From: an uncultured Gammaproteobacteria bacterium
GTDB lineage: Bacteria > Patescibacteriota > Microgenomatia > Levybacterales > UBA12049
Length of the DNA stretch: 64,000 bases
NCBI GenBank assembly: GCA_964507055.1
Contig: CAZDOJ010000001.1
Coordinates: 721,313 to 785,312 of the forward strand
Reading direction: 5' to 3'
Shown here: piece after piece, positions 10,428 to 63,526 of the stretch
Layout of the letters: the number at the start of each line of letters is the position of its first letter
Numbering within the stretch: position 1 is the first letter of the stretch
Position numbers and translations under genes: made by a program
The notes under the pieces: generated by a model
Database searches by the model: none
What the model saw: only the letters and a program-made list of their open reading frames with translations
What the model was told of the DNA's origin: nothing

Positions 10428-11396
10428 TCATTTAGCACTTTTTTTATGCCATTCCCACGCAGTCTTTATAATCGTTTCTAAGTCTGAGTACTTTGGATTA
10501 AATCCTAATTTTTCTTTTGCTTTCGTATTGTCTGCATATATTATTGCCGGATCACCAACTCTTCGTGGTCCCTCTTCAATTGGAAAATCTACACCACTTA
10601 CTTTCTTTATCATTTCAAGAACTTCTCTATTTGAATAGCCATTTCCCGTACCCAAATTTATTGAATCACTCTGTTTTGTTTCATCAATTAACTTAAGTGC
10701 ATCAATATGTGCTTGTGCAAGATCCAAGACATGAATGTAATCACGTATACAAGAACCATCTGGAGTATCGTAGTCAGTACCTAAGAGTTTAAAGGCTTTA
10801 TTTTGTCCAAGTGCTGTTTTGATAGCGATTGGGATAATATGAGTTTCAGGATCGTGATCTTCACCAAGCGAACCATCTAATAAGGCTCCGGCTGCATTGA
10901 AATAACGCAAATTAATATATTTGATGTTATGCACTTTTTCATACCAAGATAGGATCGTCTCAAACATAAGTTTGGATTCACCATAAACACTTTCAGGTTT
11001 TTTTGATTCATCTTCTGTGACTGGAAGTGACGAGGGATAGCCATAAATTGAGCAACTTGATGAAAAAATTATATTTGGAATTTTTCTTTCATGCATGAAT
11101 TCCAGAAGATTTAGTCCACCTTGAAGATTGCTTTGGAAATATTTATAGGGATTCTGCATTGATTCTCCCGCAAGAGCATACGCAGCAAAATGGATAACTG
11201 CATCAAAAGTACCAGTTACATTTTCTCTTAGATGATCGAGATCCGTAAGATCTCCAATAATGAGTGGGGCTGTGATTGATTCTTTGTGGCCATAAACGAC
11301 ATTGTCATAGACGACAACTTCATGCCCCTCTTTTAACAATTCCGCAACTGTTACGCTTCCAATATAACCTGTACCACCTGTAACTAATACTCTCAT
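10428..11396 (-). CDS. galE: UDP-glucose 4-epimerase
   Basis: 'MRVLVTGGTGYIGS' NAD-binding, 'YGESKLMFE' YxxxK catalytic dyad, 'DGSCIRDYIHVLDLAQAH', 322 aa. Confidence 0.85.
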   Translation of the reverse strand: MRVLVTGGTGYIGSVTVAELLKEGHEVVVYDNVVYGHKESITAPLIIGDLTDLDHLRENVTGTFDAVIHFAAYALAGESMQNPYKYFQSNLQGGLNLLEFMHERKIPNIIFSSSCSIYGYPSSLPVTEDESKKPESVYGESKLMFETILSWYEKVHNIKYINLRYFNAAGALLDGSLGEDHDPETHIIPIAIKTALGQNKAFKLLGTDYDTPDGSCIRDYIHVLDLAQAHIDALKLIDETKQSDSINLGTGNGYSNREVLEMIKKVSGVDFPIEEGPRRVGDPAIIYADNTKAKEKLGFNPKYSDLETIIKTAWEWHKKSAK

Positions 11397-20934: not shown

Positions 20935-22005
20935 CTAGCTCGTGATTATCTCTTCAATTTTATGATTAAAAACCGCTTCGCTAAAATCCTTAGCTCTTTT
21001 CTCTGCATGTACTGAAAGGTACTTAAGTAATGTAGCGTTATGTACTAATTTTAATGTTTGCTGTATAAACTCTTCTTTTGTACTCCAAACTAATCCATTC
21101 ACTTCATGAGAAACGATTTCTTTTTGTCCTCCGGCATTGATTACAACCGGAACGGTGCCACATCCCATCGCTTCAACAGTGGAAATACCGAAATGTTCTG
21201 CCAATTCAGGTCTTTCTTCTAAATTTTCTCCGAAACCTGAGGCATGCCAATAAATTTTTGCTTTGTTGTAGTACTGGAAAAGTTTTGTATTTGAAACATT
21301 TGTATAGAATTCAACTGGATACCCTTTCGCAGCTTCTCTCAATTTAGTAAATTCTGTTTCATCTTTTTGCAGTAATCCAGCAGCAATAATAAACTTCCAA
21401 TCTTTTAATCCAGCGTCAACCATTTCCTTAAATGCTTCGATCATAAAAGACTGTTTTTTGTAATCGTCTTCACGTCCGCTAATTTTTCGATACCGTCCAA
21501 CATGCAAAATAATGTTTTCTTTTGCGACTGGTTCGTCATGAATTTCGACTGGAGGATATAAGATATCATCATGTATATTGGGAAAATACTTTTTATTAAA
21601 TTGTCGAGTGAAAGAGGAATTATAAAAGATACCTGTAATACGTGTCGTTTTGAATTGCGAAAGTAAACCACTTTCTACTGTAGATAATGGCTGTTGGATA
21701 TGCAGAAATAGTTTCCTAGACAAGGTCAGAGGGATACTTCCGTCACTTAATACGATAATTAAATCATAAGATTGAGTCGCTGAAAGTCGTTGTAATAGAT
21801 TTGTATTGGAAGAAAAAATGTTTGGTTGTAAGTTTACCTTGCGTAAATCAATTGAGAAACGATCTGCTACAGCATCTAAGTCTTTTTTGTTATTCCAAAA
21901 TATAGAGACATCGTGATGTGACGAGAGGCATGATGCAATCGTCATCATATACTTCTCTCCCCCACCTAAGTCATCTAAGTATGGATCATATATTCCAATT
22001 CTCAC
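20935..22005 (-). CDS. glycosyltransferase family 4 (GT-B)
   Basis: 'LAEHFGISTVEAMGCGTVPVVINAGGQKEIV' E-x7-E region. Confidence 0.7.
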   Translation of the reverse strand: MRIGIYDPYLDDLGGGEKYMMTIASCLSSHHDVSIFWNNKKDLDAVADRFSIDLRKVNLQPNIFSSNTNLLQRLSATQSYDLIIVLSDGSIPLTLSRKLFLHIQQPLSTVESGLLSQFKTTRITGIFYNSSFTRQFNKKYFPNIHDDILYPPVEIHDEPVAKENIILHVGRYRKISGREDDYKKQSFMIEAFKEMVDAGLKDWKFIIAAGLLQKDETEFTKLREAAKGYPVEFYTNVSNTKLFQYYNKAKIYWHASGFGENLEERPELAEHFGISTVEAMGCGTVPVVINAGGQKEIVSHEVNGLVWSTKEEFIQQTLKLVHNATLLKYLSVHAEKRAKDFSEAVFNHKIEEIITS

Positions 22006-27939: not shown

Positions 27940-29454
27940 TTATTGCTTTAGTTCATACAGTGTGTAATAAGATTCTTTATCTTCTTTTTGAATTTGCAGA
28001 ACCTTTGTGAGTGTCCATGTATCTGGAGCTAAGCCAATCCCTTCGCAAGGAGGACATGGTTGATAAAAGACAACATAAGTTGGCATTGTTTTGCTTGCAT
28101 CGAGTATTTCTTGCGGAGGGGTATCATTTATTGGCCAGTAACCTTGAACTTTTATATTTGGATTCGTGCCAAGATATATATCGAGTGCATATGGCATGAG
28201 GCCAAATGTACCTTGCGTTGCTACATAAATTTTCTCATTTTTTGCTTTCGCTTCGAGAAACTTTACTGTTTCCTTCACGCCATTTCCGGCAGGCCAATCA
28301 GTAACGAATTGTTCTCTATCGCCTTGCGGAATTGCTGCTTTAGAAAAATTAGTCATGATATGAAAATCAGTAACGATCCACATGCCCGTAAATACAACTG
28401 CAATAAGCACTTTTAACCAGCCTGTTTTTACATATGTGAGTAATGTATACAACGAAAATGCACCCAATAAAATAAGCGGCATAGTCATAAAAAGAATAAA
28501 TCGTGGATAGATAACTTTTCCAAAAAACGCCAAAGCCATAAAAGGAACAATAAACCATACAAGTAATAAAAGTTTTTCTCTTGTGTATTTCTTACTGACG
28601 AAGAATGAAGCAAGGACAAGAATAAGGAACGGAAGTGTCATATAACCAATCAACCAACCACTCAAACCTTGTAGGTTGCCAAATACATAAGCAAACGGAT
28701 TCTGGAACCAGTCACTGAATGAATAAATGAACGTAAGATTTTTCTCGCCAATAATATGATAAAAAGGCGACAGTCGTAGAATTGCATAGATTGCCTGAGC
28801 CAATACAAATGCAACTACTGCAAATCCAAACCACTTAAAAAGTTTCTTCCTATCTAACTTTTCTTTGAATGGAAAAAGAAGCAAAGAAAACGGAAGCAAA
28901 ATAAATCCAAAATTTGCACTTGTCTTCGTCAACATTCCTCCTCCAACAATCATCCCCAATAATAATGCTAAGTCTAATCGCACATATCTTGCAAGCAAAA
29001 CGGAGAAATATAATGACCATATGATGAATAAGGCAACCATTGAATCATACAGAGCCATGCGATCATAGACCAAGGCAAACGGGTACAGGACATATAAGAT
29101 GCTCGCTGTTAAACCAATAAACTTATTCTTAAATAGCTCTCTCCCAAGAAGGAACATACCTACCATTGAAGCAAAACCAGTAAAAACAGAGACAAGTCTT
29201 CCTGCAACTAAAGGATCTTTTACAAATTCGATAAGGATCATTGCTGCCCAAATAAATGACGGCTGCTTTCCATCGGTAAGAGAGATAAATCTCCATGTGG
29301 CATCATTATTTGCAATTTGAGCCCAACGGATATAGATGGCCTCATCAGTAAAGATAGGTAGCCCGGTGAGGTTATATAAGCGAGTAAAGAAGTATAATCC
29401 CGCTAACAAAACGAAGAATGTACTGAGATAGAGATGTTTTCTAATATAACGCAT
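27940..29454 (-). CDS. GT39/GT83-family glycosyltransferase (PMT/ArnT-like)
   Basis: 'FTRLYNLTGLPIFTDEAIYIRWAQI' first-loop DE motif, ~11 TM helices plus C-terminal periplasmic domain. Confidence 0.6.
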   Translation of the reverse strand: MRYIRKHLYLSTFFVLLAGLYFFTRLYNLTGLPIFTDEAIYIRWAQIANNDATWRFISLTDGKQPSFIWAAMILIEFVKDPLVAGRLVSVFTGFASMVGMFLLGRELFKNKFIGLTASILYVLYPFALVYDRMALYDSMVALFIIWSLYFSVLLARYVRLDLALLLGMIVGGGMLTKTSANFGFILLPFSLLLFPFKEKLDRKKLFKWFGFAVVAFVLAQAIYAILRLSPFYHIIGEKNLTFIYSFSDWFQNPFAYVFGNLQGLSGWLIGYMTLPFLILVLASFFVSKKYTREKLLLLVWFIVPFMALAFFGKVIYPRFILFMTMPLILLGAFSLYTLLTYVKTGWLKVLIAVVFTGMWIVTDFHIMTNFSKAAIPQGDREQFVTDWPAGNGVKETVKFLEAKAKNEKIYVATQGTFGLMPYALDIYLGTNPNIKVQGYWPINDTPPQEILDASKTMPTYVVFYQPCPPCEGIGLAPDTWTLTKVLQIQKEDKESYYTLYELKQ

Positions 29455-32100: not shown

Positions 32101-33329
32101 TTCTTTTTCTTTCGTTTAACTTGACGTGCAAAAAGTATTTGCTTGTAAAAAAAGTAGGCGGTAATAATAAGAAATGCTAAAGTATAACTCAAGAAATTCA
32201 TATCTAAAAGAATTTGAGGTATTGGCTTATCCCAGTTACCCGTAAAAAGGAATGGTACATAATTCATCAAGGAGAAAAATGACACAATGACAGCTGGAAT
32301 TAGCACATAATATCGATAGGAAATGAGTGCAGCAAAAGCTAAAACATCAATAAGATACCACGGCTGAAATGTACCTCTATATGATTGTGCCGCCGCTCCC
32401 CCAATAAGAAGTATTACTGCTATGCCAATAATAAAACCCCATTTTCGATGAATCTTCTCGGCCTTCATTCGGTGGATAACGACAAATAGTGGTAATAAAA
32501 CAGCTGTGACAAATTTTATTGCAATGGAAAGAAATAGTAGCCCATACGCTTTACCATGTTTTTCTATAATCATAAAATAGAATGCCCAAAGGGCAAAAAA
32601 CATCATGACAATGTCAATGTGAGGACTTACAACACTTTCTATAAGCATCAGTGGATTTAATCCAAAGAAAATAAGCCCCATTACTTCTCGTTCCGGAGCA
32701 ATCGTCTTTAATATTTTTCCAATAAAGAATACTGAACCGATGAAACAAGCTATCATTAACAATTTAAAAAGGAAAAATGTTGGCAAAAAGAATTGCAAAC
32801 CTATGAAAGAAAGAGGTACTGTAATCACCAACCAGAACGGACCATATGGATATTCTCGATGGGTCCAACGCATAAATGAAAGCATCGGATCCTCAGGATA
32901 ATCTAGAGCTTTTTGTACATAAGGATTGTCTCCATAATGAGTTATAATCTTTGCATCAAATATATAATTAAAAATATCATAGGAAAAAGCGTTGTAGGAA
33001 AAGGTAAGAATAATTGTGGCTGCACCAATCAAAATCCACGTAAACTTTTTTTGAATCTTCTTTTTGGTAGCTAGTCTTAAAAAGATTACATAAAAGACAA
33101 AAAGGATCACAACAAGTGAAACAAAAAGGGTTGCAGAAAGAGGCCTGTCAAAATATCCAATCTGTTGAAAAGAGCGTACAATTTCCTGAAGTGCTTCATT
33201 TCGAGAGAGAGCCAAACTTAAATCAATTTGTGTAAAACTGTAGAAGAATAATCCAACAAGCGGGACACAATAAAAGAAAAGGATTAAATATTCTTTTAAT
33301 GATAAATTTTTAAATAGTGTTTTCACCAT
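32097..33329 (-). CDS. polytopic membrane protein (GT-C-like; possibly DUF2029/GT87-like)
   Basis: 410 aa multi-pass; 4-bp overlap with downstream gene; ends with KKKK tail. Confidence 0.35.
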   Translation of the reverse strand: MVKTLFKNLSLKEYLILFFYCVPLVGLFFYSFTQIDLSLALSRNEALQEIVRSFQQIGYFDRPLSATLFVSLVVILFVFYVIFLRLATKKKIQKKFTWILIGAATIILTFSYNAFSYDIFNYIFDAKIITHYGDNPYVQKALDYPEDPMLSFMRWTHREYPYGPFWLVITVPLSFIGLQFFLPTFFLFKLLMIACFIGSVFFIGKILKTIAPEREVMGLIFFGLNPLMLIESVVSPHIDIVMMFFALWAFYFMIIEKHGKAYGLLFLSIAIKFVTAVLLPLFVVIHRMKAEKIHRKWGFIIGIAVILLIGGAAAQSYRGTFQPWYLIDVLAFAALISYRYYVLIPAVIVSFFSLMNYVPFLFTGNWDKPIPQILLDMNFLSYTLAFLIITAYFFYKQILFARQVKRKKKK

Positions 33330-34087
33330 TAATTATATCTTCCTGCAAGTACATTTCTTTTAATTTTTACAAGATCTTTTACTCCCTGAATCGCATCGCG
33401 TACAGGATTAACTCTTCTCGTCTCTACATGAAGCCAATTTACATGAACTTCTTTTATTTTATAGCCATGATTTCTTGCAATGTAGAGAATCTCAATATCT
33501 GATCCAAAAGTAATTGCTGTCCCCTTAACTTTCTCAAAACCATTTTTTAGAACTTTTAATTTATTAAATACATCGTCCGCTGCTTTTGCAGTAAACAATT
33601 TAAATCCACATTGTGTGTCTGTTATATCATTAATGCCTATTATCATTTTTCTCATAATGATTGCACTTCGAGAAATAAATAAACGTATCTCCGGAGCACC
33701 TTTTCGCTGCGTACTTCTCGAACCAATGGCGATATCATAGTCTCCACTTTCAAGATATGGTAGTAAATTATTAACTTCTTCAATAGGAGTAGCCTGATCC
33801 ATATCAGTAAAAAGACGGTACTCACCTTGTGCTTTCAACATGCCGGTAGTAACAGCACCAGCTTTTCCATAGTGAGGGTTTTTAATTAAGATAAAATGAG
33901 GATTTTCTTTTATAAATTTTTCGATAAACTCGACGCTACCGTCTCTCGATCCATCATCAGCGATGATTACTTCGTAGGAAATCTTTTTCTTTTCAAGAAA
34001 ATGCTGTACTTTTTCAAGCACACCTTTCTGGAGATTAGCCATCTCATCATAGCAAGGAATAACAACAGAAAGAAATATTTTCTTCAC
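33329..34087 (-). CDS. GT2 dolichyl/polyprenyl-phosphate beta-glucosyltransferase-like (ALG5/DPM1 family)
   Basis: 'LSVVIPCYDEMANLQKGV', 'VIIADDGSRDGS', 'RLFTDMDQATPIEEV'. Confidence 0.75.
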   Translation of the reverse strand: MKKIFLSVVIPCYDEMANLQKGVLEKVQHFLEKKKISYEVIIADDGSRDGSVEFIEKFIKENPHFILIKNPHYGKAGAVTTGMLKAQGEYRLFTDMDQATPIEEVNNLLPYLESGDYDIAIGSRSTQRKGAPEIRLFISRSAIIMRKMIIGINDITDTQCGFKLFTAKAADDVFNKLKVLKNGFEKVKGTAITFGSDIEILYIARNHGYKIKEVHVNWLHVETRRVNPVRDAIQGVKDLVKIKRNVLAGRYN

Positions 34088-41112: not shown

Positions 41113-43062
41113 CTATAAATCATTTCTTTTGAACTTTCTTTTAATTGTAGTTGCACTACTGATGATTATAATAGACACAACAGCAAAAACAAAGCCAGGA
41201 TCTGTAACGACATATATAATTCTATTTAAAAGTAATATATATGGTTTTTGAAGTAATTCTAACTTTGGTTGAGAATACACTGTAACCAAACTTGTTGATG
41301 AAGTATCAACAAAAAGTTCTTCTGAATTATTCACTCTCTTTGACGAAAGTTCTAAGACATAGTCTTTCCCTTTTGCATCAACAATAACTGGAATCCCAAA
41401 CCCAAAGAAGGGAGATCCTTCAGCAGTATTCGCATCGCGAGTGTATGTTGCAATTTCTTTATTTTTACCATCCAACAACCTAATAGTAAATTTAGACAAA
41501 CTACCACGTTCTAGATTCTCTGAAGGATGTTCCTGGGCATAACGCAAACGAATATATATAGCACTGAGATCTTGATCTTTTGCTTTAAAGGGTATCCGTA
41601 AAGCTTTTTCACTTACCTGTAATTCTGATGTTTGAGCGGTGATTGGATGTCGTGATAGTAGTAAAGTGGGAGAAAAACTACCAGAATACAAATAAAATAT
41701 AATGGCAATACTACAAAAAGCAGTAACTACAACTCTACGTGTTGAAAATGATTGTGAAGCTTTTCTGACTTTTTCTTTTGAAGAAGCGAGTGTCGTTTCA
41801 AGTAAGTCTCTCTTGCTTTTGAAATATAATCGCTCGATGAAATAAAATAAGTAACTTGCTACTGCTACTCCCAAAATGATCATCAGGAAAAATACAAATG
41901 TATCGTTAAGATTTGGGAAACTCATTGTTGCTTTATTTACCCATTCAATAATATGAGTATGAGAAAGATACAAAGAATAACTAATTAACCCAAGAAATAC
42001 TAACATTTTAGTACTAAAAATTTTATAAGAAAGCGTTTTAGGAACAATTGCCGAAGCAATGAGTAAAGCAATAATCCAACTTGAGACAAGATAGTAATAG
42101 TTCATGAATACGATACTTTGTCCATGACGAATATGTGTATCTCCCCATTGAAGTCCTACAAATAAGAGTAATATAAAAATTACAGAGAAAGGATTACTAA
42201 CAAATGGTAAAAGCTTTTGCCAAATTTTTCCATTGCTTTGATAAATAGTACCAAGAACAACCCCCGCAACAAACCCACTTGCTCGTGCAATATTCATACT
42301 TTGCAGACCCGCAAATGGAACTATCGCGTAATCTAAATTAAAAAGAATTATTGTAACTGCAGCAATGCACAGAACCGAGAAAAATATTCCAAGCTTTTTA
42401 CAAACATAAATCAAAGGAATAACAATAAAAGGATAGACTACATAAAATAAAACTTCAGGAGCCAAACTCCAAACCACACCACTCAACCGTAGAATATCTT
42501 TTGCAAAAGGCGTCGTCAATGTAAGATTTGAAAGTAAAGTTAGTATGTTTGTAATATCAGTTGCTCCTGGGTTCGCAAAGAAGCGAGGAGTAATGAAGAT
42601 ATTGAGAAAGACCAGTATTATCTGCAAACTAACAAATCCAAAAAAAAGTACCTTCCCAATATATCTTGAAACCATAGATGCTTTGAACAATTTCCACAGA
42701 AAAAATACACCTAAGGCAGTTCCTAAGAATATAAGTGCTTGCAAATAATATGGACTTCCTTTGATTTGTGAAATAAGCCAAAGAGAAGTAATTACAACAC
42801 CTAAAATTGGAAAAATACGTGCATAGCGTTTTTGAATATACTTCCATGTAACGGGTATCGACGGGTACAAAAAAGCCATAAGAAAACCTGACAAAACGAA
42901 AAGTATTTGGACAGAATTTGGCCCTACAGCAAGGGTTTGATAAGCGGTGATAATAATAGGATTCGGTATAAATAATGAGGGAGAATAACCAGTATGAGAA
43001 AGTAGTACGGCGAATGCAGCAAATCCTCGCAATCCATCAAGTGCAGGCAATCTTGTTTTCAC
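41113..43062 (-). CDS. acyltransferase family 3 (OafA/YrhL-like) membrane O-acyltransferase with ~270-aa C-terminal extracytoplasmic extension
   Basis: 'LPALDGLRGFAAFAVLLSHTG' AT3 signature, ~10 TM helices, then soluble C-terminal domain and a terminal TM. Confidence 0.7.
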   Translation of the reverse strand: MKTRLPALDGLRGFAAFAVLLSHTGYSPSLFIPNPIIITAYQTLAVGPNSVQILFVLSGFLMAFLYPSIPVTWKYIQKRYARIFPILGVVITSLWLISQIKGSPYYLQALIFLGTALGVFFLWKLFKASMVSRYIGKVLFFGFVSLQIILVFLNIFITPRFFANPGATDITNILTLLSNLTLTTPFAKDILRLSGVVWSLAPEVLFYVVYPFIVIPLIYVCKKLGIFFSVLCIAAVTIILFNLDYAIVPFAGLQSMNIARASGFVAGVVLGTIYQSNGKIWQKLLPFVSNPFSVIFILLLFVGLQWGDTHIRHGQSIVFMNYYYLVSSWIIALLIASAIVPKTLSYKIFSTKMLVFLGLISYSLYLSHTHIIEWVNKATMSFPNLNDTFVFFLMIILGVAVASYLFYFIERLYFKSKRDLLETTLASSKEKVRKASQSFSTRRVVVTAFCSIAIIFYLYSGSFSPTLLLSRHPITAQTSELQVSEKALRIPFKAKDQDLSAIYIRLRYAQEHPSENLERGSLSKFTIRLLDGKNKEIATYTRDANTAEGSPFFGFGIPVIVDAKGKDYVLELSSKRVNNSEELFVDTSSTSLVTVYSQPKLELLQKPYILLLNRIIYVVTDPGFVFAVVSIIIISSATTIKRKFKRNDL

Positions 43063-44460: not shown

Positions 44461-45537
44461 ATGACTACTGAAGATATCCTCAGACACAGACTCTACAATG
44501 AACAACTCGTAACGCATCAATTCAAAACGGTAGCAGAACTTGTCAAATATCTAGGAGCTGTCCAATCACAGGACTATGCTGGAGCGAAATGGGCTTTAGC
44601 ACAAAGACTCTCAAATATATCGGAGACAGAACTTGATAGAGCATATGACAATGGTGAAATATTGCGAACTCATGCACTTCGTCCGACGTGGCATTTTGTC
44701 CATCCTGAAGATATTTTGTGGATTCTTAGTTTGAATGCTCCTGGATTTAAAAGGATTTTAAAATACTATTACACACAACTAGACCTTAATGAAAAAGTCA
44801 TGAAACAGTCCCAAGAGATTATGCAGGAAGCACTTCATGGAGGAAAAGCTTTGACACGAACGGAGATTGGAGAACTTTTATTGAGAGCAAAAATCCCTGG
44901 AAAAGGACAAGCACTTGGCCATATTATGGGCGAAGCTGAAATTGATGGAATTATTTGTAGTGGACCCCGAAAAGGCAAACAATTTACTTATATGCTCATT
45001 TCTGAACGAGCCCCACAAGCCAAAACATTGCAATGGGATGAAGCATTAAAAGAACTGACGAAACGATACTTCACAAGTCATGGACCTGCACAAATGAAAG
45101 ATTTCGCATGGTGGACTGGTCTACCAATTGCAGAAGTGAAAAAAGGCTTGGAGCTAAATAGAGACAATTTGGTAAAGGAATCGATTTATGGAAATGACTA
45201 TTGGCATTCTGAGAAGTCCAAAATCGAGAAGACTGTGCCAAAAAATGTGTATTTGTTACCTAACTACGATGAATATGCAATTGCGTATAAAGATCGCTCA
45301 GCTTTTTATGATCCTGCAAACACTGAAACATTTGATCAAAGAAATAATGTAATCTTTGGACATATGATCTTTATTGAGGGGAAAATTGTCGGAATGTGGA
45401 GAAGAACTATTCAAAAAAAGACAGTCGAAATCGAAACCCTCCTCTATCGTAAGCTCACAAACGATGAAGGAGAACGATTACACAAAGCCGCTAAAGACTA
45501 TGGAAACTTCCTCAGCCTCGATGCCATCATAAAATAG
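44461..45537 (+). CDS. winged-helix DNA glycosylase, AlkZ/YcaQ-like (HTH_42/DUF1006)
   Basis: N-terminal 'LVKYLGAVQSQDYAGAKWALAQRL' with a Q-hydrophobic-Q catalytic-type motif; overall ~360-aa YcaQ-like length. Confidence 0.5.
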   Translation: MTTEDILRHRLYNEQLVTHQFKTVAELVKYLGAVQSQDYAGAKWALAQRLSNISETELDRAYDNGEILRTHALRPTWHFVHPEDILWILSLNAPGFKRILKYYYTQLDLNEKVMKQSQEIMQEALHGGKALTRTEIGELLLRAKIPGKGQALGHIMGEAEIDGIICSGPRKGKQFTYMLISERAPQAKTLQWDEALKELTKRYFTSHGPAQMKDFAWWTGLPIAEVKKGLELNRDNLVKESIYGNDYWHSEKSKIEKTVPKNVYLLPNYDEYAIAYKDRSAFYDPANTETFDQRNNVIFGHMIFIEGKIVGMWRRTIQKKTVEIETLLYRKLTNDEGERLHKAAKDYGNFLSLDAIIK

Positions 45538-46895: not shown

Positions 46896-47495
46896 ATGAC
46901 CTTTTCATATCCTCTTAAACTAAACTTCAAGCTTATGGCGTTAGCTCCCCGAATATCAGTAATTGACGCAAATAATCAGGAAATATTTTATATTGAACAA
47001 AAAGTACTTGCACTGAAAGAAGCTATAAAAGTGTTTGATAACCAGAAAGACAAAAACCTACTTTATACTATGCAAGCAAACCAAATCATTGATTTTGGGG
47101 CAACCTATATTTTTAAAGATGCAAAAAACCATCGTGATATTGGATCCATTCAACAAGAAGGTATGCGGTCATTGTTTCAGGCAAGCTATGCTATCACTGA
47201 TAAAAATGGGGTAGATTCATATACTATTAAGCAAACAAATCCTATGATAGCTATATTGGATTCATTAATAAACATTATTCCATTCGCCGAGCTTGTAAGT
47301 GGATTTATACTCAATCCGACATATGCAGTGACAAAAAATGATGATCAACAAGTCATGATCACAATGAAAAAGAAACCAAGCTTTTTCGAATCAAACTTTG
47401 AGCTTGTGAAAGATCAATCAATACCCGAGAAAGACGAACTATTGTTACTCTTATCCATAGCAATGCTTGTTCAATTGGAACGAAATCGTGGCTAA
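46896..47495 (+). CDS. hypothetical protein (possibly LURP-one-related/DUF567-like)
   Basis: 199 aa soluble; weak resemblance only. Confidence 0.3.
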   Translation: MTFSYPLKLNFKLMALAPRISVIDANNQEIFYIEQKVLALKEAIKVFDNQKDKNLLYTMQANQIIDFGATYIFKDAKNHRDIGSIQQEGMRSLFQASYAITDKNGVDSYTIKQTNPMIAILDSLINIIPFAELVSGFILNPTYAVTKNDDQQVMITMKKKPSFFESNFELVKDQSIPEKDELLLLLSIAMLVQLERNRG

Positions 47496-56843: not shown

Positions 56844-58433
56844 AACGCATGCTTCATAGGGACCTAATGTGATTTGTGTTTCGTTATCAGCGATTGTATG
56901 ATCCGCATTTGTAGATACAACTACCTGCATATCAGAAAACGGTAAGGTCCCAATTTGGTCCTGATCAGTAAAATTCAACAGAATAACTCGCATATCATTA
57001 TCAATCGATCGAGTGAATGCAAAAATCTCATTGTTTTTAACGTCTAGACTATCATATGCACCATTAATAATAACCGCATCCTCCTGACGCATTTTTAGAA
57101 GCTTCCTGTAAAGTGAAAGCATTGAATGCACATCCTTACTTTCATTGGAAACATTTCGTTCCTCCCAAGCATTTTCCAAAGGCAACCACGGTGTTCCTTT
57201 CGTAAATCCAGCATTTTTTGAAGCATCCCATTGCATTGGAGTTCGGACTGGATCACGTCCAAATCCTGGCGACGTATATTCTTTCGTGTCATGAATCATT
57301 TCTCGCGGGATATGCACATCTTCCATACCAAGTTCCTCCCCATAATAAATAACAGGCATACCTGGAAGTGTCAAAAGTAATACTGCTGCAATCTTTGATT
57401 GCCCACGACCAAATCGTGTAGATATACGTGGCTTATCATGATTCCCAAAAACAAATGTTGGAAGCTCTGTTGGAGTTAAGGATTTGATATAAGCCGTAAC
57501 AAATTGTCTGTATGAATCCGCACTCCAAGGAATACGTTGGAGTTCAAAGTTGAAGGGGATGACATTCCCACTGGAGATATTCTCGTAATATTTTTTGTAA
57601 ATCGGGATTGCATCAGTTCCTTTTTTATTGAGATACGATTCAGTAATAAGAAATCCGTCACCATGTTCTTTAATGAATGAACCGAGTTCATCGATAATTT
57701 CAAATACTTTCTCTTGATCACGCATATATATATGCAACTTTTTATAAAACGGTTGTATCGCACCTTCAACATAGGTTAGATCATCAGGTTCATCAAGAAA
57801 TCGTGGATCTTTCCAAAGGTAATTTGCAGCATCCAACCGAAATCCATCGACATCTTTATCAATCCAAAACTTGATAACCTTTTTTACTGCTTGCATCACT
57901 TCGGGATTTGCCCAATTGAGATCAGGCTGCTCAGTAAGAAATGAATGGAAATAATATTGTCCCGTTGATTCATCCCAAGCCCACGGTGTCGGCTCAAAAA
58001 CACTCATCCAGTTATTTGGCTCTTTGCCGTCGACTTTGTCTTTCCAAATATACCAATCTCTTTTGGGATTATCACGGCTGGATCGAGATTCTTGAAACCA
58101 TGGATGCTGATCTGAGGTATGATTTACAACAAGATCGATTACCACTTTAATCCCTCGGGCATGTGCTTGTTCAATAAACTTTTCAAAATCTTTCAGAGTT
58201 CCAAACTCTGGGGAGACATCACAATAATTCTCAATATCATAGCCTCCATCCTTCATCGGAGATGGATAAAATGGAGTAATCCAGATGGCATTAATACCTA
58301 ATTCTTTGAGGTAATCGAGTCGAAAAATGATGCCATTGAGATCACCATAGCCATCACCATTGGAATCTTGGAAACTTCGAGGATATATTTCGTATAGAAC
58401 GAGATTATTCTTTGATGACATAACCAAAGCCAC
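56814..58433 (-). CDS. GH13 alpha-glucosidase / oligo-1,6-glucosidase-like
   Basis: 'LYEIYPRSFQDSNGDGYGDLNGI', 'DLVVNHTSDQHPWF', catalytic 'GFRLDAANYL', 'EELGME'. Confidence 0.8.
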   Translation of the reverse strand: MALVMSSKNNLVLYEIYPRSFQDSNGDGYGDLNGIIFRLDYLKELGINAIWITPFYPSPMKDGGYDIENYCDVSPEFGTLKDFEKFIEQAHARGIKVVIDLVVNHTSDQHPWFQESRSSRDNPKRDWYIWKDKVDGKEPNNWMSVFEPTPWAWDESTGQYYFHSFLTEQPDLNWANPEVMQAVKKVIKFWIDKDVDGFRLDAANYLWKDPRFLDEPDDLTYVEGAIQPFYKKLHIYMRDQEKVFEIIDELGSFIKEHGDGFLITESYLNKKGTDAIPIYKKYYENISSGNVIPFNFELQRIPWSADSYRQFVTAYIKSLTPTELPTFVFGNHDKPRISTRFGRGQSKIAAVLLLTLPGMPVIYYGEELGMEDVHIPREMIHDTKEYTSPGFGRDPVRTPMQWDASKNAGFTKGTPWLPLENAWEERNVSNESKDVHSMLSLYRKLLKMRQEDAVIINGAYDSLDVKNNEIFAFTRSIDNDMRVILLNFTDQDQIGTLPFSDMQVVVSTNADHTIADNETQITLGPYEACVLKGSSLNRR

Positions 58434-59115
58434 GAACAGAGTGCAGTAGCTTTTTCTCAGAATCTGAATCTACTTTCTTTCGGAGATATCCCATGTAGAC
58501 ATCGACGACACGGGTTTCAACATCACTTGAGTATAACCAGATTCGGGAAAGAATCATTTCTCGAGTAAGGATACGACCTTTGTTACTCATTAAATATTGC
58601 AATAATTTAAATTCCTGTGGAGTTAATTGGATTTGCTTGCCACTTCTTTTTACTTCCATTGTCTTTGAATCTAGTTCTAAATCTGCAACTTTCAAAACAG
58701 CTTCATTACTAACTTGTTTTCTGAGTCGGGCTTTAATACGAGCGAGAAATTCATCAGCGACAAATGGCTTTGTCATATAATCATCTGCACCAAGGTTTAA
58801 TCCTTCAACAATATCGTTAATTGAGTCTTTTGCTGTAAGAATGATTATTGGGAGGTCTTTATACTTCTTACGAATTTCGCGAGTAACTGCTTCACCTGAC
58901 ATAACTGGAAGTCCAAGATCCATAACTACTAAATCAGGTTCAGTTTTTTTGAAGTAATCTAAGGCTGCGATACCATCAGAAACAGTATGCACGGAGTATC
59001 CGTTATCAAGAAGTAATTCTTTAAGATATTTTTGCAATCCACGGTCGTCTTCGACCACTAATATTGTTTGCATCATAACTCGTGCCATTATAGCAACAAA
59101 TGTAAGAACGCACAA
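58405..59115 (-). CDS. OmpR-family response regulator (REC + winged helix)
   Basis: 'ILVVEDDRGLQ', 'LVVMDLGLP', 'PIIILTAKD', winged helix 'LTPQEFKLLQYLMSNKGRILTREMI...MGYLRKK'. Likely start at Met14/15 (~59073). Confidence 0.8.
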   Translation of the reverse strand: MCVLTFVAIMARVMMQTILVVEDDRGLQKYLKELLLDNGYSVHTVSDGIAALDYFKKTEPDLVVMDLGLPVMSGEAVTREIRKKYKDLPIIILTAKDSINDIVEGLNLGADDYMTKPFVADEFLARIKARLRKQVSNEAVLKVADLELDSKTMEVKRSGKQIQLTPQEFKLLQYLMSNKGRILTREMILSRIWLYSSDVETRVVDVYMGYLRKKVDSDSEKKLLHSVRGFGYVIKE

Positions 59116-59147: not shown

Positions 59148-60377
59148 TTAGAGAGATTTTCGTGGCCCATCTTCCGGCCCATCTTCTTCACCTGACCAAT
59201 CAACTTCTCCTCCCAATGAATCAAGGGGAGAGTCGTCTGAATCCAATGGAGGCATAGAAGGTGGCGGCGTTTTAGGAGCTTCATGTGTAATCCACACACC
59301 CATTGGATCAAAGCCAGTTACCTCAGCAGTTCGTTGATCAATAGTTAATGGATCTCGGAGATCTGCAATATAGTATTCGACTCCCAATAGACTTGGATCT
59401 GTTACTTTATATCCTAAAATTTCACTTACTTGGTCAACAACTTTTTGGGTTGCTGTAGCCCGAGCTTCCACAATCTCTTCGGCAGTTGGATCCTCTTTGC
59501 CAGCTAGGGCATCAGTTGTGAAAGCATCAATTTCCAGCTGCCAACGAGACTGTGCAGCTGCTATATTTTCTTTGACTGGTTGTGCATACATTTCCAATTC
59601 TTGAGCATTGGCACGCAATCCTTTTGTTTTGTCTATATATTCTCGAATTGCTTCACGCTCCAAATCTTGTCCTACAGTAGCTTCTCGCATTATTCGTGCA
59701 GCTTGTACACTATCGAATGCTTCTGCATACTTTCCACGTTCGAAATCGCCAAAAAATGTATCCATTCGCTCTCTAAGTCCTTCTGGATCAGTCATCCCTA
59801 CTCTATAAAAAATGGGACCGAGATTTCCATTACTATGGATCTTTTCCCCTGTAATAATACTGACTCTTTTTAGGACTTCTTCTTGTGCTCTTGAGTTGGC
59901 CTCAAATGGTGGATGATATTGCGAGTACCTATTAACAAGAGTTGTATGTTCTTCCTCAAACAGAAACTGAACAGCCTCAATATGACTTACGACCCCATAT
60001 CTAAAATCGGAATATTCGTTTACTTCATGTATACCGTCACTCGTGTGAGAGGGATCTCTGTGGTATCTTTCCCGAAATAATTGTAGGGTTATTTCATCCC
60101 GATGTTGGGTGAATGATTTTTCATCACGACCCTCTGAATAAGTATTTGGATGTTTCGAAGGTCTCTGATGTATATCATGGGTAAAAAGTTGTATCCCGGG
60201 ATCCCTAGGATCTATCATTCCTTTATCCAGCCATTCTTCCTGGGCAATTTCTTGGGCACGACGTGCGTATCTGCCACGGAATGTGAACCGTGAGGTTGCT
60301 TTAAAAGTTTCCCATCGTTCGCGGAAACCTTGTTTGGGTTGATCTGGTCTACCTGGTTGTGATTCTGGGTTTTTCAT
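59148..60377 (-). CDS. acidic cytoplasmic protein of unknown function sharing N- and C-terminal motifs with the adjacent sigma-like protein
   Basis: 409 aa, D/E/R-rich, no TM. N-terminus 'NPESQPGRPDQPKQGFRERWE'. C-terminal 34 aa 'PPLDSDDSPLDSLGGEVDWSGEEDGPEDGPRKSL' aligns without gaps to the tail of 60438..63239. Confidence 0.5.
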   Translation of the reverse strand: MKNPESQPGRPDQPKQGFRERWETFKATSRFTFRGRYARRAQEIAQEEWLDKGMIDPRDPGIQLFTHDIHQRPSKHPNTYSEGRDEKSFTQHRDEITLQLFRERYHRDPSHTSDGIHEVNEYSDFRYGVVSHIEAVQFLFEEEHTTLVNRYSQYHPPFEANSRAQEEVLKRVSIITGEKIHSNGNLGPIFYRVGMTDPEGLRERMDTFFGDFERGKYAEAFDSVQAARIMREATVGQDLEREAIREYIDKTKGLRANAQELEMYAQPVKENIAAAQSRWQLEIDAFTTDALAGKEDPTAEEIVEARATATQKVVDQVSEILGYKVTDPSLLGVEYYIADLRDPLTIDQRTAEVTGFDPMGVWITHEAPKTPPPSMPPLDSDDSPLDSLGGEVDWSGEEDGPEDGPRKSL

Positions 60378-60437
60378 AAAGAGTCATTATAATCGAAAGA
60401 TTAGGCACAAGCAAGTCTACAGTAAATATCTTATAGA

Positions 60438-63239
60438 TTACAGTGTCTTTTGCTGATCTGTTTCTGGACCATCATTGTCGCCAGACCAGTCCACACCAGA
60501 ATTTAACTCCTCCAATGAGATATCATCTTCAGAGAATTGCGGACGATCTTCACCTGATTGACCAGCGTGAGGAGTAGAACCTGGAAGTTTCTTTTCAAGA
60601 AGACCTTCTTTTTGCAGTGATCGGACAATCTTCCTTGTTTCATTAAATGTAAGCCCGGTAATTGTTGCTATTTCGTCCAATGTAGCATGAGGTCGTAACT
60701 GTATAATCTGATCTCGTTGTCGTTGTTGTGCTTCAAGAACTTCCTCTGTTGGAGAAGTATCTATTCCTTTCTTATCGAGAATAGCTTTTGCATCGTATAA
60801 GGATTCCAATGGATAATTGGTCTCTTCATGTATCTGTTTAATTGACTTACCAGCACGTAAACCGATAATCAGTGCTTCACGACGATCATTTCTCACAACA
60901 TCACTTGTATCTTGCCAGTTCACAACATACCCATAATCACCTGCCTCGGTCAACCTTCGAGCAATATTTTCTTCACTAAGATAGACCGTTCTTGAAATAT
61001 CTTTTATTCGGCTTCCTTCGTTATAAAGAGTAATAACCTCATCGTATCGATCACGTATTTCCTCAGCGGTTCGACCCTGAAGATCTGTAGGAATTTGAGA
61101 TAGTACTGTATCTACCATTGGCTTTATAAGTTCCCATGAAACCCTATCTTGCACTTTACTTGCATAGGTACTCCATGCATGACGCATAGATCTTGCATCG
61201 CTTTCTTGATCATCCATATGCGGTGCAAAAATCTCAGCAACTCTTGCTAAGGAGTATGGACTGCCGAAAGGATCTTCATTACCTGCTTGTGATTCAACTG
61301 TTGTAAAGTATGTTTGCTTGAGAGTGGAGAGATCAGTTCTTGAAAGATCCATTCGGCTGAGTAATTCTTCGGCAGCATCTCTTCGGTCAACAGACCAAGC
61401 AGCGTCATTTCCAATTCCCCGAATTAACCGAGCAGCAAGATCTGTGGATTGGTCTGGAGTTAGTTCATTCATAGCAGCCATTGCTTCTGCTCTTACAGTG
61501 GTCCATTCAGCAGGATCACTGTGATAAAACTTCCACAGGTGGTTATCACCTAAATATTTTTCTATTATTTGCACTTGAGGATCAAGTTCATCAGGCCGGA
61601 GTAGTTTTATTTCACCCTTCGCGAGTGCACGTATCGATTCAAGATCACCCTCCACCTTTAAAGCATCTGCGTGGATCAGATGTTCCATCAGATCATCGAC
61701 ACGTCCCATACTTTTATCCCAAGTAGTTGATCCCATACTATTCAAATTAACAGCTCTTACCCATGTATCTCTGATATCCCAAAGCCCTTGGGTATCTGTT
61801 TGCAATACTTCAGCAAGGATAGTTCCTGACTGCAATAGAAGATTTGGATCGGAGGTATTACTCTGATTTTCTACTGCCCATAAATACCGCTCGGTCAATA
61901 CATTAGAATCTAAGCCTTCAAGATCTACCCCTCTTAAAAGCTGTAAAGCAACGTATTTTGCATTCCCCTCTCTCCCCATTTTGCTAATGAGAGCTCTAGT
62001 AAACCACGTTCTTTCTTTTGTGTTTAATCTATTTATATCGTGCACTGCACCTTTGTATTCGTCACTTGCAGTTCGGCGATCAAGAAATCTCTTATACTGA
62101 CTGGCAAACAATCTATATTCCAAAGTTGCGGCATTAAACTCAGTCCTTTTTTCTTCAGCTTCGTTCGTTTCTGGTACTTCAGGGACTTCACCACCTTGTT
62201 GTACCCAATAATCCAGTATATGTTCATCTGTACTTAACTTTTGTAAAGTATTTTTATACACACGTCTAACAGTCATCGAAGAGATACCCATTCTTTCCGC
62301 TATTATCTCTTGTGTTACACCATCTTTGAAAACCGCTTCAAGAATATCCCGCTCTCGTTCTGTTAAACTCTCAGTCACAGTATCAAATACGTTATGAACA
62401 TCAACTGGTGTAGCCATAGACCTAGTAAGATATTCCTCTACTGTATCCTCTGGTACTACTCCTATTTCCTTAAAAATCATTCCAATGGCGGTTTGTATAT
62501 GTAAATCAATTGGCTGAGAATCCATCGTACTGAGATGTTCAGCAATAGCTTGTCTTGTAGGCATTTCTCCGTGTTGCTCGAAATAATTATTAGCAAATGA
62601 ATAGCCCTCCAGATAAACTAACTGAGCAATTCTGGGAATTCTAATCTCATCATCTTGTTGAACTCGTGCCTCAAAAATTGCACTTCTTACTCTTCTTGTA
62701 GCATATTGATAATAATCTACGCCTGAATCAGGATCATAGTCATCGAGTACATTGGTAAGCTCTGCTAGTCCTTCTTGAAACCTATCTTCAATTGTCATAT
62801 GCTTTGTGGTATGCCTTCGGGCAGGTCCAAGGATAATACCGAGACTACAGTTTAAAAGAAGTTGTGATACAGAATTACTCTCTGTAATTACTGCCTCGAA
62901 TTCCTGTTGAAATTTATTACTATTTTCTGGTGTATTGGTTCCAAAGGCTTCATTCGTTTGAATATCTGACAGTAACTCTGTACGCTGCGTATGCATTTGC
63001 TTTCGTGCTGAGGGTGTAGGATTCTCATTATAGTTATTGACTATAGATTTTTCTTGTGTGTATGCTCGAAACAAAACTGACCATTGACGCTGTGACAATT
63101 TCTGAGGATACCGAATAATTTTATTCCAGTAATCTGCATGCAAAGAAATGCTCCCAGCACCTTCTTCACGGGCTCTGTCAGCATATTCTTCTTCCCTAAA
63201 TCGGCGAGCAACCGCACCAGGTCTATTTCTCTCTGTCAT
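60438..63239 (-). CDS. atypical sigma-70-family protein with ~125-aa N-terminal and ~600-aa C-terminal extensions (extra HTH repeats)
   Basis: Region 2-like 'DRFQEGLAELTNVLDDYDPDSGVDYYQYATRRVRSAIFEARVQQDDEIRIPRIAQ' (compare canonical '..DLIQEGNIGLMKAV.KFD..RG.KFSTYATWWIRQAI......IRIP'). Region 4 'LTERERDILEAVFKDGVTQEIIAERMGISSMTVRRVYKNTLQKL'. Extra HTH-like units near the C-terminus. Tail 'PQFSEDDISLEELNSGVDWSGDNDGPETDQQKTL'. Confidence 0.6.
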   Translation of the reverse strand: MTERNRPGAVARRFREEEYADRAREEGAGSISLHADYWNKIIRYPQKLSQRQWSVLFRAYTQEKSIVNNYNENPTPSARKQMHTQRTELLSDIQTNEAFGTNTPENSNKFQQEFEAVITESNSVSQLLLNCSLGIILGPARRHTTKHMTIEDRFQEGLAELTNVLDDYDPDSGVDYYQYATRRVRSAIFEARVQQDDEIRIPRIAQLVYLEGYSFANNYFEQHGEMPTRQAIAEHLSTMDSQPIDLHIQTAIGMIFKEIGVVPEDTVEEYLTRSMATPVDVHNVFDTVTESLTERERDILEAVFKDGVTQEIIAERMGISSMTVRRVYKNTLQKLSTDEHILDYWVQQGGEVPEVPETNEAEEKRTEFNAATLEYRLFASQYKRFLDRRTASDEYKGAVHDINRLNTKERTWFTRALISKMGREGNAKYVALQLLRGVDLEGLDSNVLTERYLWAVENQSNTSDPNLLLQSGTILAEVLQTDTQGLWDIRDTWVRAVNLNSMGSTTWDKSMGRVDDLMEHLIHADALKVEGDLESIRALAKGEIKLLRPDELDPQVQIIEKYLGDNHLWKFYHSDPAEWTTVRAEAMAAMNELTPDQSTDLAARLIRGIGNDAAWSVDRRDAAEELLSRMDLSRTDLSTLKQTYFTTVESQAGNEDPFGSPYSLARVAEIFAPHMDDQESDARSMRHAWSTYASKVQDRVSWELIKPMVDTVLSQIPTDLQGRTAEEIRDRYDEVITLYNEGSRIKDISRTVYLSEENIARRLTEAGDYGYVVNWQDTSDVVRNDRREALIIGLRAGKSIKQIHEETNYPLESLYDAKAILDKKGIDTSPTEEVLEAQQRQRDQIIQLRPHATLDEIATITGLTFNETRKIVRSLQKEGLLEKKLPGSTPHAGQSGEDRPQFSEDDISLEELNSGVDWSGDNDGPETDQQKTL

Positions 63240-63526
63240 AATCGAATGATTATACTCCTGTTCTTCATCAAACTCAACCTATAGTGAGTTGACTCCAAAG
63301 AATAATTTATATTTAATAAAAAAGTTATGGGACATATAAATTATTTTACTATTCAACAATGATGAGCTTGACGAATTATTTTTTAATTGCTATAAATTTT
63401 ACACACCTTAATATTTTTTCAAATACTCTTCTGTATCTAAAATCTCATCATTTTATTAATTCCTTACAAAATATTTAATCATTTACACTTTTCTTACCAC
63501 TTTATGATTGAAAATTTATATGGGTC

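Follow-up and report, generated by a model that had tools for sequence, protein, structure and literature searches.

What does the gene at 60438..63239 (minus strand) of contig CAZDOJ010000001.1 encode: a sigma factor run together with its neighbour by assembly error, a sigma factor carrying its own regulator, or a protein that has put a sigma fold to another use? The coordinates are those of the window, the whole stretch of 64,000 nt that we analysed. The locus had been singled out by an earlier note, made from the sequence letters, as a sigma-70-family protein with a long C-terminal extension. We found one intact reading frame for a 933-aa protein, in which a sigma-70-family core is followed by two HEAT-like modules, three helix-turn-helix (HTH) units and a disordered acidic tail that ends like the product of the next gene. 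Our preferred reading, to which we give about even odds (roughly 0.5), is that of an alternative sigma-70-family factor natively fused to a complete regulator-like unit. The coordinates of all features are given in Table 1.

An intact gene with a sigma-70-family core

The open reading frame (ORF) comprises 933 codons from an ATG start with zero internal stops. The identical product was called on 10 contigs, for which six places are shown, in six different runs of the Sequence Read Archive (SRA), and also in one NCBI genome (longest contig 1.32 Mb). The gene is thus real and forms a single intact reading frame. The earlier note had stated that the frame continues past region 4, which the same stop-free ORF in at least six assemblies bears out, and had advised a check for a frameshift or chimera near residue ~340 together with a search for collinear homologues. 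Identical recurrence across independent assemblies excludes such an error at the assembly level, and an exhaustive HMMER search returned three collinear homologues (22-30% identity) that read through the same junction. An assembly or annotation artefact, in which a frameshift or chimeric contig ran a sigma gene into a separate downstream gene, would suit the existence in other organisms of free-standing proteins matching exactly the extension; we nevertheless regard it as having a negligible chance of being correct, in view of the recurrence in at least six assemblies and the NCBI genome, the continuity of the three homologues and the uniform codon usage along the gene. The GC content at third codon positions (GC3) is 0.27, against 0.265 +/- 0.03 for the window. 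The overall GC content is locally raised (0.42 vs ~0.34) with the surplus in codon positions 1 and 2, which points to amino-acid composition rather than recent transfer; a recent horizontal transfer was therefore rejected.

The sigma-70-family core spans residues ~100-337, has regions 1.2, 2 and 4 and a region 3 equivalent, and belongs to no curated subfamily. Using Pfam, we detected Sigma70_r4 at residues 291-335 with 51.2 bits (E 8.7e-14; gathering threshold (GA) 24.1), in agreement with the region 4 proposed earlier. The NCBIfam model TIGR02937 covers residues 139-336 with 69.5 bits, over its cut-off of 42.9. In a phmmer search against PDB sequences, SigA/HrdB/RpoD chains aligned collinearly with residues 102-336 (E 5.6e-9). 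The alignment begins in region 1.2 and runs to region 4.2, the ~75 residues between regions 2 and 4 falling on sigma-3 of SigA. We then modelled the full-length protein with AlphaFold from a 37-sequence alignment (mean predicted local distance difference test score (pLDDT) 83.0) and searched the model with Foldseek; the top 50 matches were all sigma chains of RNA polymerase (RNAP) holoenzymes, with probability 1.00 over ~340 columns. TIGR02937, phmmer and Foldseek thus uphold the region 2 that had been read from the sequence, Pfam Sigma70_r2 alone staying below threshold. The proposed ~125-aa Arg-rich N-terminal extension had to be shortened, since residues ~100-125 are region 1.2 and the SigA alignment starts at 102; the remainder does lie outside the core and is a family-conserved helical stretch, with a pLDDT of 86-96 over residues 30-100, a segment conserved in P0002, P0004, P0005 and P0009.

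The collinear order of regions 1.2, 2, 3 and 4 is that of the group 1-3 sigma-70 factors (SigA/RpoD, RpoS, SigB/F/G, FliA), among which the best sequence and structure matches are the SigA, HrdB, SigB and RpoS chains in holoenzymes. Unlike these, the 933-aa protein has R-R in place of W-W and carries ~100 extra N-terminal and 600 extra C-terminal residues. Sigma factors of the extracytoplasmic function (ECF) type have domains 2 and 4 only, so the protein, in which regions 1.2 and 3 are aligned, is not an ECF sigma.

HEAT-like modules, HTH units and the case for a fused regulator

The extension (residues 341-933) has a net charge of -36, the whole protein -51, and no transmembrane (TM) segment was found in the 933-aa protein (maximum Kyte-Doolittle 19-mer 1.16), as expected from the earlier description of a soluble acidic extension of ~600 aa. 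Its model is all-helical and confident (mean pLDDT 84). Residues ~370-717, two thirds of the extension and passed over in that description, are two HEAT-like alpha-solenoid domains, for which the HEAT/ARM alpha-solenoids (importin-beta, MMS19, CAND1, condensin CAP-G, TOG, VHS/ENTH) are the closest known comparison. We built a module profile from eleven single-domain sequences (alignment A4). It found two copies in the 933-aa protein, at residues 389-495 and 548-717, and two copies each in P0002, P0003, P0004 and P0005, none of which had been used in building it. BLAST comparison of the 933-aa protein with itself gave no internal repeats, the duplication being visible only by profile. The module, an undescribed domain of ~170 aa, is recognised by the signatures W-x-V-D-R-R-D-[GA]-A ... 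D-P-x-G-S-x-x-S-L and by 13 invariant positions, and could merit a family entry of its own. Known HEAT-like solenoids mostly bind proteins or peptides.

Behind the modules, the model shows three tri-helical HTH units, and tri-helical HTHs bind DNA. The earlier note had counted three additional HTHs and called them sigma-4- or LuxR-like; the count stands in the model, and the assignment was not borne out, as Pfam gave no GerE or Sigma70_r4 match to units 1-3, both families matching residues 290-337 only. Units 1 and 3 gave sub-threshold scores with other families (HTH_40 23.8 vs 27, HTH_7 22.8 vs 23.8, HTH_Crp_2 19.2 vs 27). We found no recognisable anti-sigma domain (ASD/zf-HC2/RsrA-like) in the extension, and no SnoaL-like, TPR, WD40-like, Cys-rich or zinc-finger Pfam family at E <= 1.

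To collect relatives, we ran the exhaustive HMMER search over 1.84 billion representatives, which yielded 1726 matches at E <= 1e-3, mostly ordinary sigma factors. A word-indexed protein search recovered nothing beyond the query, whether started from the full protein or from the extension alignment, and no candidate for the tail alignment. Three proteins, P0002 (922 aa, E 5e-90), P0004 (1000 aa) and P0005 (970 aa), are collinear with the query through the N-terminus, the sigma core, both modules and the HTHs. Judged on their sequences, these proteins are a small conserved family and not a chimera. The family relatives are singletons from unannotated SRA assemblies, without annotation names. 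P0009 (486 aa) has the family N-terminal region and the canonical Y-A-I-W-W-I-R-Q motif; by eye, it shows a second region-4-like HTH at its C-terminus, and Pfam gives one Sigma70_r4 stretch.

Other relatives lack the sigma core. The extension boundary is precisely where P0003, P0007 and P0008 begin; the first two correspond to the complete extension, as free-standing module-module-HTH proteins, and P0008 (224 aa) stops after module 1. A split gene with the sigma half encoded upstream was rejected for P0003 and P0007, whose upstream genes have no sigma domain. P0006 carries three modules. Many other proteins have a single copy of the module at their N-terminus, ahead of Sigma70_r4 in P0012 (two r4 stretches, 62 bits) and P0026, ahead of several HTHs in P0109 and P0015, and ahead of a large unknown domain in proteins of ~775 aa. 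Compared with the 933-aa protein, P0003, P0006, P0007, P0012, P0026 and P0109 thus have the module followed by a tri-helical HTH or Sigma70_r4, without sigma regions 1.2-3. The fusion partner is free-standing elsewhere, and the module repeatedly stands N-terminal to DNA-binding outputs, an arrangement in the input-output order usual for one-component regulators. The ~775-aa proteins (P0016, P0033, P0105, P0111) form a family of their own, in which the large C-terminal domain has no Pfam match and the motif D-L-F-L-G-D-[LI]-T-G-D-C-T-[AS]-Y-H-L ... W-T-V-P-[VI]-W-L-[ST]-N-P-G-F-N-F recurs.

We next looked for mobile relatives. No module relatives were found in IMG/VR or BFVD, tblastn with the extension matched none of the 50,697 phage and 72,556 plasmid records searched, and PHROGs and PADLOC matched the sigma and HTH parts only. 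In JGI metagenomes, the module lies in ordinary chromosomal contexts beside UvrA, UvrC and TypA-like genes, with one contig of 594 kb and 35% GC. A phage, plasmid or defence-system origin was rejected on the chromosomal context and the lack of viral or plasmid homology beyond the sigma and HTH parts.

In a sigma factor with a fused regulator, the sigma core would bind the RNAP core and recognise a promoter, and the three HTH units would add sequence-specific DNA contacts beside that promoter, so that the factor would bring its own activator or tether. It would be switched on or off by a protein or peptide partner that docks on the HEAT-like modules, so that control would be exerted in cis, as with the regulatory C-terminal extensions of ECF41, ECF42 and ECF57. 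The last ~30 residues would be a short linear motif in common with the downstream 409-aa protein, one receptor handling both. That the gene is native is supported by an ordinary TATAAT leaderless promoter, typical GC3 and an ordinary chromosomal context. Two of the roles suggested in the earlier note, a fused regulator and a multi-site DNA binder, would both be plausible.

Binding of RNAP, of DNA by the HTHs and of a partner by the modules, as well as the role of the tail, we infer from sequence and fold. Several observations weigh against this reading. The full-length model has a predicted template modelling (pTM) score of 0.40 and does not dock the extension with confidence on sigma domains 2 or 4. 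Pfam Sigma70_r2 reaches 21.9 bits at residues 139-192, just under its GA of 24, and Pfam Sigma70_r3 is not detected at residues 206-280, a stretch that the SigA and the ~340-column structural alignments do span. No curated sigma subfamily fits: SigB/F/G scores 63 bits vs a cut-off of 234, and the other NCBIfam subfamilies stay below theirs too (FliA_WhiG 39.7/189.6, RpoD_Cterm 42.2/354, rpoS 31.6/378.7, rpoH 26/323). The -10 recognition helix is poorly conserved: region 2.3 has R-R instead of W-W, and P0002 lacks the Y-A-T motif. Finally, a simple sigma factor with a regulatory domain does not account for the terminal motifs that different proteins share, or for the arrays of orphan ORFs with tails in homologous loci, both described below.

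Some of these points would also suit a sigma-derived regulator, in which the core is a relic without RNAP binding and the protein acts as a multi-HTH regulator or nucleoid organiser: regions 2.3 and 2.4 are divergent, Pfam r2 is sub-threshold, and P0002 has no Sigma70_r2 match at E <= 0.01. The sigma-less paralogues with the same module-HTH unit (including the three-module P0006), the proteins with a module and r4 only, and the many HTH proteins in the arrays are in line with it. Region 2 is nevertheless as conserved as any other part of the family, with a mean pairwise identity of 29% among the four full-length homologues vs 30% for module 2, the best-conserved extension domain, which argues for selection on the sigma part. 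Of the 4 full-length homologues, 2 have an intact D-x-x-Q-E-G core-binding motif and the others one substitution each (H-E-G in P0004, Q-A-G in P0005), and the I-R-I-P of the 933-aa protein appears in homologues as I-R-V-P, V-R-I-A or I-R-L-P. Since, in addition, domains 1.2 to 4 are collinear and confidently folded and a sigma-factor profile gives 110-114 bits for P0004 and P0005, we consider a relic core unlikely, at about one chance in five.

The usual picture of sigma factors other than ECF sigmas is one of regulation in trans. Among the ECF sigmas, at least 26 groups bear a regulatory extension at the N- or C-terminus, which works through conformational change, protein interaction or proteolysis (PMC8999054). 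Such extensions replace or supplement an anti-sigma factor, with protein-binding repeat domains in ECF42 and ECF57, and like that of the 933-aa protein they can be cytoplasmic C-terminal domains fused in cis (PMC8999054). The differences lie in size, the figures given being 120-150 residues for the SnoaL-like groups against ~600 here, and in content, as neither three extra HTHs nor a shared terminal peptide was found for any ECF group in that review (PMC8999054). Other long metagenomic proteins with sigma domains (P0062, 562 aa; P0070, 689 aa; P0078, 739 aa; P0093, 608 aa; P0021, 2057 aa) resemble the 933-aa protein in having a sigma-70 core and several hundred unannotated residues, and differ in that they lack the HEAT-like module and are not collinear with it beyond the sigma core. 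In P0021, an SNF2 helicase precedes sigma regions 2-4, and several of the 560-740-aa metagenomic sigmas have C-terminal halves without annotation.

An extended sigma factor is therefore not a new idea; the combination of domains is new, and the protein belongs to a known class with an undescribed set of fused domains and an undescribed domain family. Searches of Pfam, NCBIfam, PHROGs, PADLOC, the PDB and the literature found no sigma architecture like it, as the earlier note had supposed. If the fused-regulator reading is right, a group-1/3-like sigma with a fused solenoid would extend sigma-regulator fusion to another branch of the family and provide a naturally occurring sigma that itself recognises upstream DNA. 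The HEAT-like module, which recurs with HTH or sigma-4 outputs and has no Pfam match and no named member, is a candidate new family in its own right. Architecture and conservation would surprise a transcription specialist; multi-domain novelties are common in uncultured lineages.

A terminal peptide shared with the neighbour, and shared tails in homologous loci

The gene 60 nt downstream encodes a 409-aa acidic protein. The last 29 residues of the two proteins are 52% identical up to the C-terminus (E 8e-6) and follow the pattern V-D-W-S-G-x-x-D-G-P-E-x4-K-[ST]-L, a likeness between adjacent and otherwise unrelated proteins that had been missed earlier. Within the 74 kb examined, only this adjacent pair bears the tail. 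In the V-D-W-S-G..D-G-P-E core, the two genes use different synonymous codons for 6 of the 9 identical residues, and their likeness does not extend past the stop codon. The synonymous differences indicate that selection acts on the tail peptide; gene conversion or a DNA repeat was rejected on both counts. A motif scan of GTDB representative genomes, a set that does not include the source genome, gave one chance match, in Bifidobacterium. The shared tail could mean that the 933-aa and 409-aa proteins have one common receptor, for docking, targeting, turnover or export.

We also noticed that residues ~220-358 of the 409-aa protein (nt 59304-59720, minus strand) form an unannotated domain of ~135 aa, which occurs twice in each of three 750-810-aa proteins beside or near P0004 and P0005. 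This recurrence beside the sigma homologues argues that the sigma gene and its neighbour form a conserved pair.

The loci around P0002, P0004, P0005 and P0003 (L007, L009, L010 and L011) contain 8-10 consecutive large genes whose products bear tails, one type per lineage. These genes have their own leaderless-type promoters, and one tail-bearing gene lies on the opposite strand. Their products lack signal peptides and TM segments, and Pfam matches are all but absent. The L010 tail looks homologous to those of the window. Sigma-like members of the arrays include a 382-aa protein with r2 and proteins of 493 and 300 aa with r4. The sole array member without the shared tail is a 905-aa protein (L009:14876-17593) with a net charge of ~-137.

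A second motif, M-x(0-4)-[ED]-R, stands at the N-terminus of 17 of the 33 array proteins vs 2 of the 49 window ORFs and is followed by a basic, Pro-rich stretch. Examples are MTERNRPG, MSERDYPARP, MAERDRG and MVERPNG; such starts occur in proteins of L007, L009, L010 and L011, in P0006-P0008, P0011-P0013, P0017 and P0026, and in the window at 63239. As both CGN and AGA codons are used for its Arg, the motif looks like a feature of the peptide.

These terminal peptides bear on another explanation, in which the 933-aa, 409-aa and array proteins would be effectors that leave the cell through a single machine devoted to export or translocation. That machine would recognise the C-terminal tail specific to the lineage, perhaps in combination with the basic M-x-E-R N-terminus, and the sigma-like and HTH-rich cargo, once inside a host cell, would redirect transcription there. 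Type IV secretion substrates carry C-terminal signals, such as the XVIPCD of Xanthomonas effectors, the Dot/Icm E-block and positively charged VirB/D4 tails. By analogy, the shared tail may be compared with them: both are hydrophilic, disordered, at the extreme C-terminus, lineage-specific and found on unrelated proteins that are often clustered. Here the tail follows an acidic linker and joins two adjacent unrelated proteins under peptide-level selection, and the arrays, with their runs of tail-bearing genes, one of them on the opposite strand, their products without signal peptide, TM segment or known family, and their excess of M-x(0-4)-[ED]-R starts, would fit an effector repertoire. Small-genome, low-GC bacteria of this kind are often epibionts, which also counts for export. 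So does the wide distribution of type IV secretion systems in Patescibacteria (PMC12102498). Unlike for type IV substrates, no translocon or coupling protein was seen nearby: family scans showed no secretion-system or translocon gene in the 64-kb window or 10 kb beyond. Sequence similarity to type IV signals is not to be expected. The epibiotic lifestyle is assumed, two tail-bearing genes were seen in this genome (74 kb covered), and the cargo consists of regulators, not of the enzymes or toxins typical of effector arsenals. We know of no precedent for a translocated sigma factor. We hold export of these proteins to be improbable, somewhat more so than a relic core.

The bolder form of this proposal is that tail and M-x-E-R N-terminus label the cargo of an undescribed targeting or export pathway, that the 933-aa sigma is delivered to take over host RNA polymerase, and that further cargo is encoded in the arrays, with their sigma-like, HEAT-like and multi-HTH products, of bacteria that have small genomes and are probably Patescibacteria-like; taken jointly, these claims are less probable again. 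Whatever their role, these shared peptides give access to the dark proteome of uncultured bacteria with small genomes, and if they are an export or targeting signal they would define a searchable cargo set and pathway.

Promoters and genomic surroundings

Table 1. Features of the 933-aa gene, its neighbour and related loci. Coordinates refer to the window unless a locus is named; residues are those of the encoded protein.
Feature	Coordinates	Strand	Details
Whole gene	60438..63239	-	933-aa sigma-70-family protein with C-terminal extension; stop codon 60438-60440
Residues 1-100	62940..63239	-	starts M-T-E-R-N-R-P-G; ~30-100 family-conserved helical, Y-P..L...Q..(L/V)L
Residues 101-205, region 1.2-like and region 2	62625..62939	-	D-R-F-Q-E-G core-binding helix; Y-A-T-R-R-V-R-S-A-I; I-R-I-P
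Residues 206-280, region 3 equivalent	62400..62624	-	collinear with SigA, helical; 259-278 low-confidence linker
Residues 281-337, region 4 (HTH)	62229..62399	-	Sigma70_r4 51.2 bits, Sigma70_r4_2 37.7, GerE 35.6
HEAT-like module copy 1, residues 370-530	61650..62132	-	hidden Markov model (HMM) match 389-495, i-E 2.7e-13; pLDDT 92-98
HEAT-like module copy 2, residues 548-717	61089..61598	-	W-S-V-D-R-R-D-A-A ... E-D-P-F-G-S-P-Y-S-L
HTH unit 1, residues 725-768	60936..61067	-	three helices; HTH_40, HTH_7 sub-threshold; phrog_3855 30.6 bits
HTH unit 2, residues 780-823	60771..60902	-	three helices, pattern as in units 1 and 3; conserved in P0004; no HMM match of its own
HTH unit 3 (winged-HTH-like), residues 832-877	60609..60746	-	sub-threshold HTH_Crp_2, HTH_IclR, MarR_2, TrmB; phrog_1123, phrog_3502
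Disordered acidic tail, residues 886-933	60441..60584	-	pLDDT ~36-40; ends D-D-I-S-L-E-E-L-N-S-G-V-D-W-S-G-D-N-D-G-P-E-T-D-Q-Q-K-T-L-COOH
409-aa acidic protein	59148..60377	-	downstream by 60 nt; no Pfam or NCBIfam family; shared tail
Tail of 409-aa protein	59151..59285	-	...G-V-W-I-T-H-E-A-P-K-T-P-P-P ... L-D-S-L-G-G-E-V-D-W-S-G-E-E-D-G-P-E-D-G-P-R-K-S-L-COOH
Promoter-like site	63249..63277	-	sigma-70-type TTGAGT, 17 nt, TATAAT; -10 ends 9 nt before ATG
TATAAT hexamer	60386..60391	-	8 nt before ATG of downstream gene
L007 array tail			E-P-x-[IV]-G...S-I-A..E-A...K-[ST]-K
L009 and L011 array tail			[IL]-[FY]-x-[KR]-Y-G-[ILV]...E-[IV]-[DE]-E
L010 array tail			S-G-A-W...T-P..V-x-[IL]-[VA]-G..G-E...R-[DE]-S-R
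Proteins with two copies of the ~135-aa domain	L009:1312-3567, L009:12320-14746, L010:10628-12976		
~775-aa family loci	L015:6289-8613, L016:645-2972, L017:461-2782, L018:9842-11584		ordinary chromosome, low-GC contigs, one 594 kb

From the promoter-like site ahead of the 933-aa gene, its mRNA is predicted to be leaderless or nearly so, with no Shine-Dalgarno sequence. The TATAAT hexamer placed just before the ATG of the 409-aa gene indicates that the downstream gene has a leaderless-type promoter of its own. Across the window, Shine-Dalgarno sequences are nearly absent, and in many genes that come first in an operon a TATAAT-like hexamer ends 5-11 nt ahead of the start codon (for example 10428-11396, 20935-22005, 27940-29454, 33329-34087, 41113-43062, 44461-45537 and 46896-47495, with further cases in L007, L009-L011 and L019); the same layout is found at almost every gene of the homologous arrays. 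A special promoter for the 933-aa gene was accordingly rejected, such promoters being general across the window, and the pattern suggests genome-wide use of leaderless mRNAs in the lineage. In the literature, we found nothing relevant on leaderless translation or C-terminal signals in Patescibacteria.

Upstream of the 933-aa gene lie GH18 and S11 peptidase genes; downstream are genes for an OmpR-type response regulator, an alpha-amylase, a histidine kinase, Crp, a sortase and Lon, and further along a glutamine synthetase, MGMT, an AlkZ-like glycosylase and a long membrane-glycosyltransferase cluster. The longest ORF of the OmpR-type regulator (58405-59115, minus strand) starts with TTG and overlaps the alpha-amylase ORF, and the later start used in public assemblies (222-223 aa) is probably correct. 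In the first part of the window (1-34087), where seven ORFs were scanned for families, mostly same-strand genes with weak to moderate matches to membrane glycosyltransferase families (PMT_2 twice, GT87, a PTPS_related membrane protein) stand among large ORFs without a Pfam match. The sortase, the many PMT_2/GT87 glycosyltransferases, the low GC and the small genome would suit a Patescibacteria-like bacterium.

A pair of surface-protein genes is conserved between L001:2514-4490, upstream of the window's end, and L013:2304-4318. The first member has x-P-T-G-[SD] followed by a hydrophobic C-terminal anchor, as in sortase substrates, and the second ends in C-P-T-L-G-P-V-x-N-V-x-I-[ED]-C-P-N-C-P. 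Since the pair is common to the organism of the window and that of P0007, the two are probably related.

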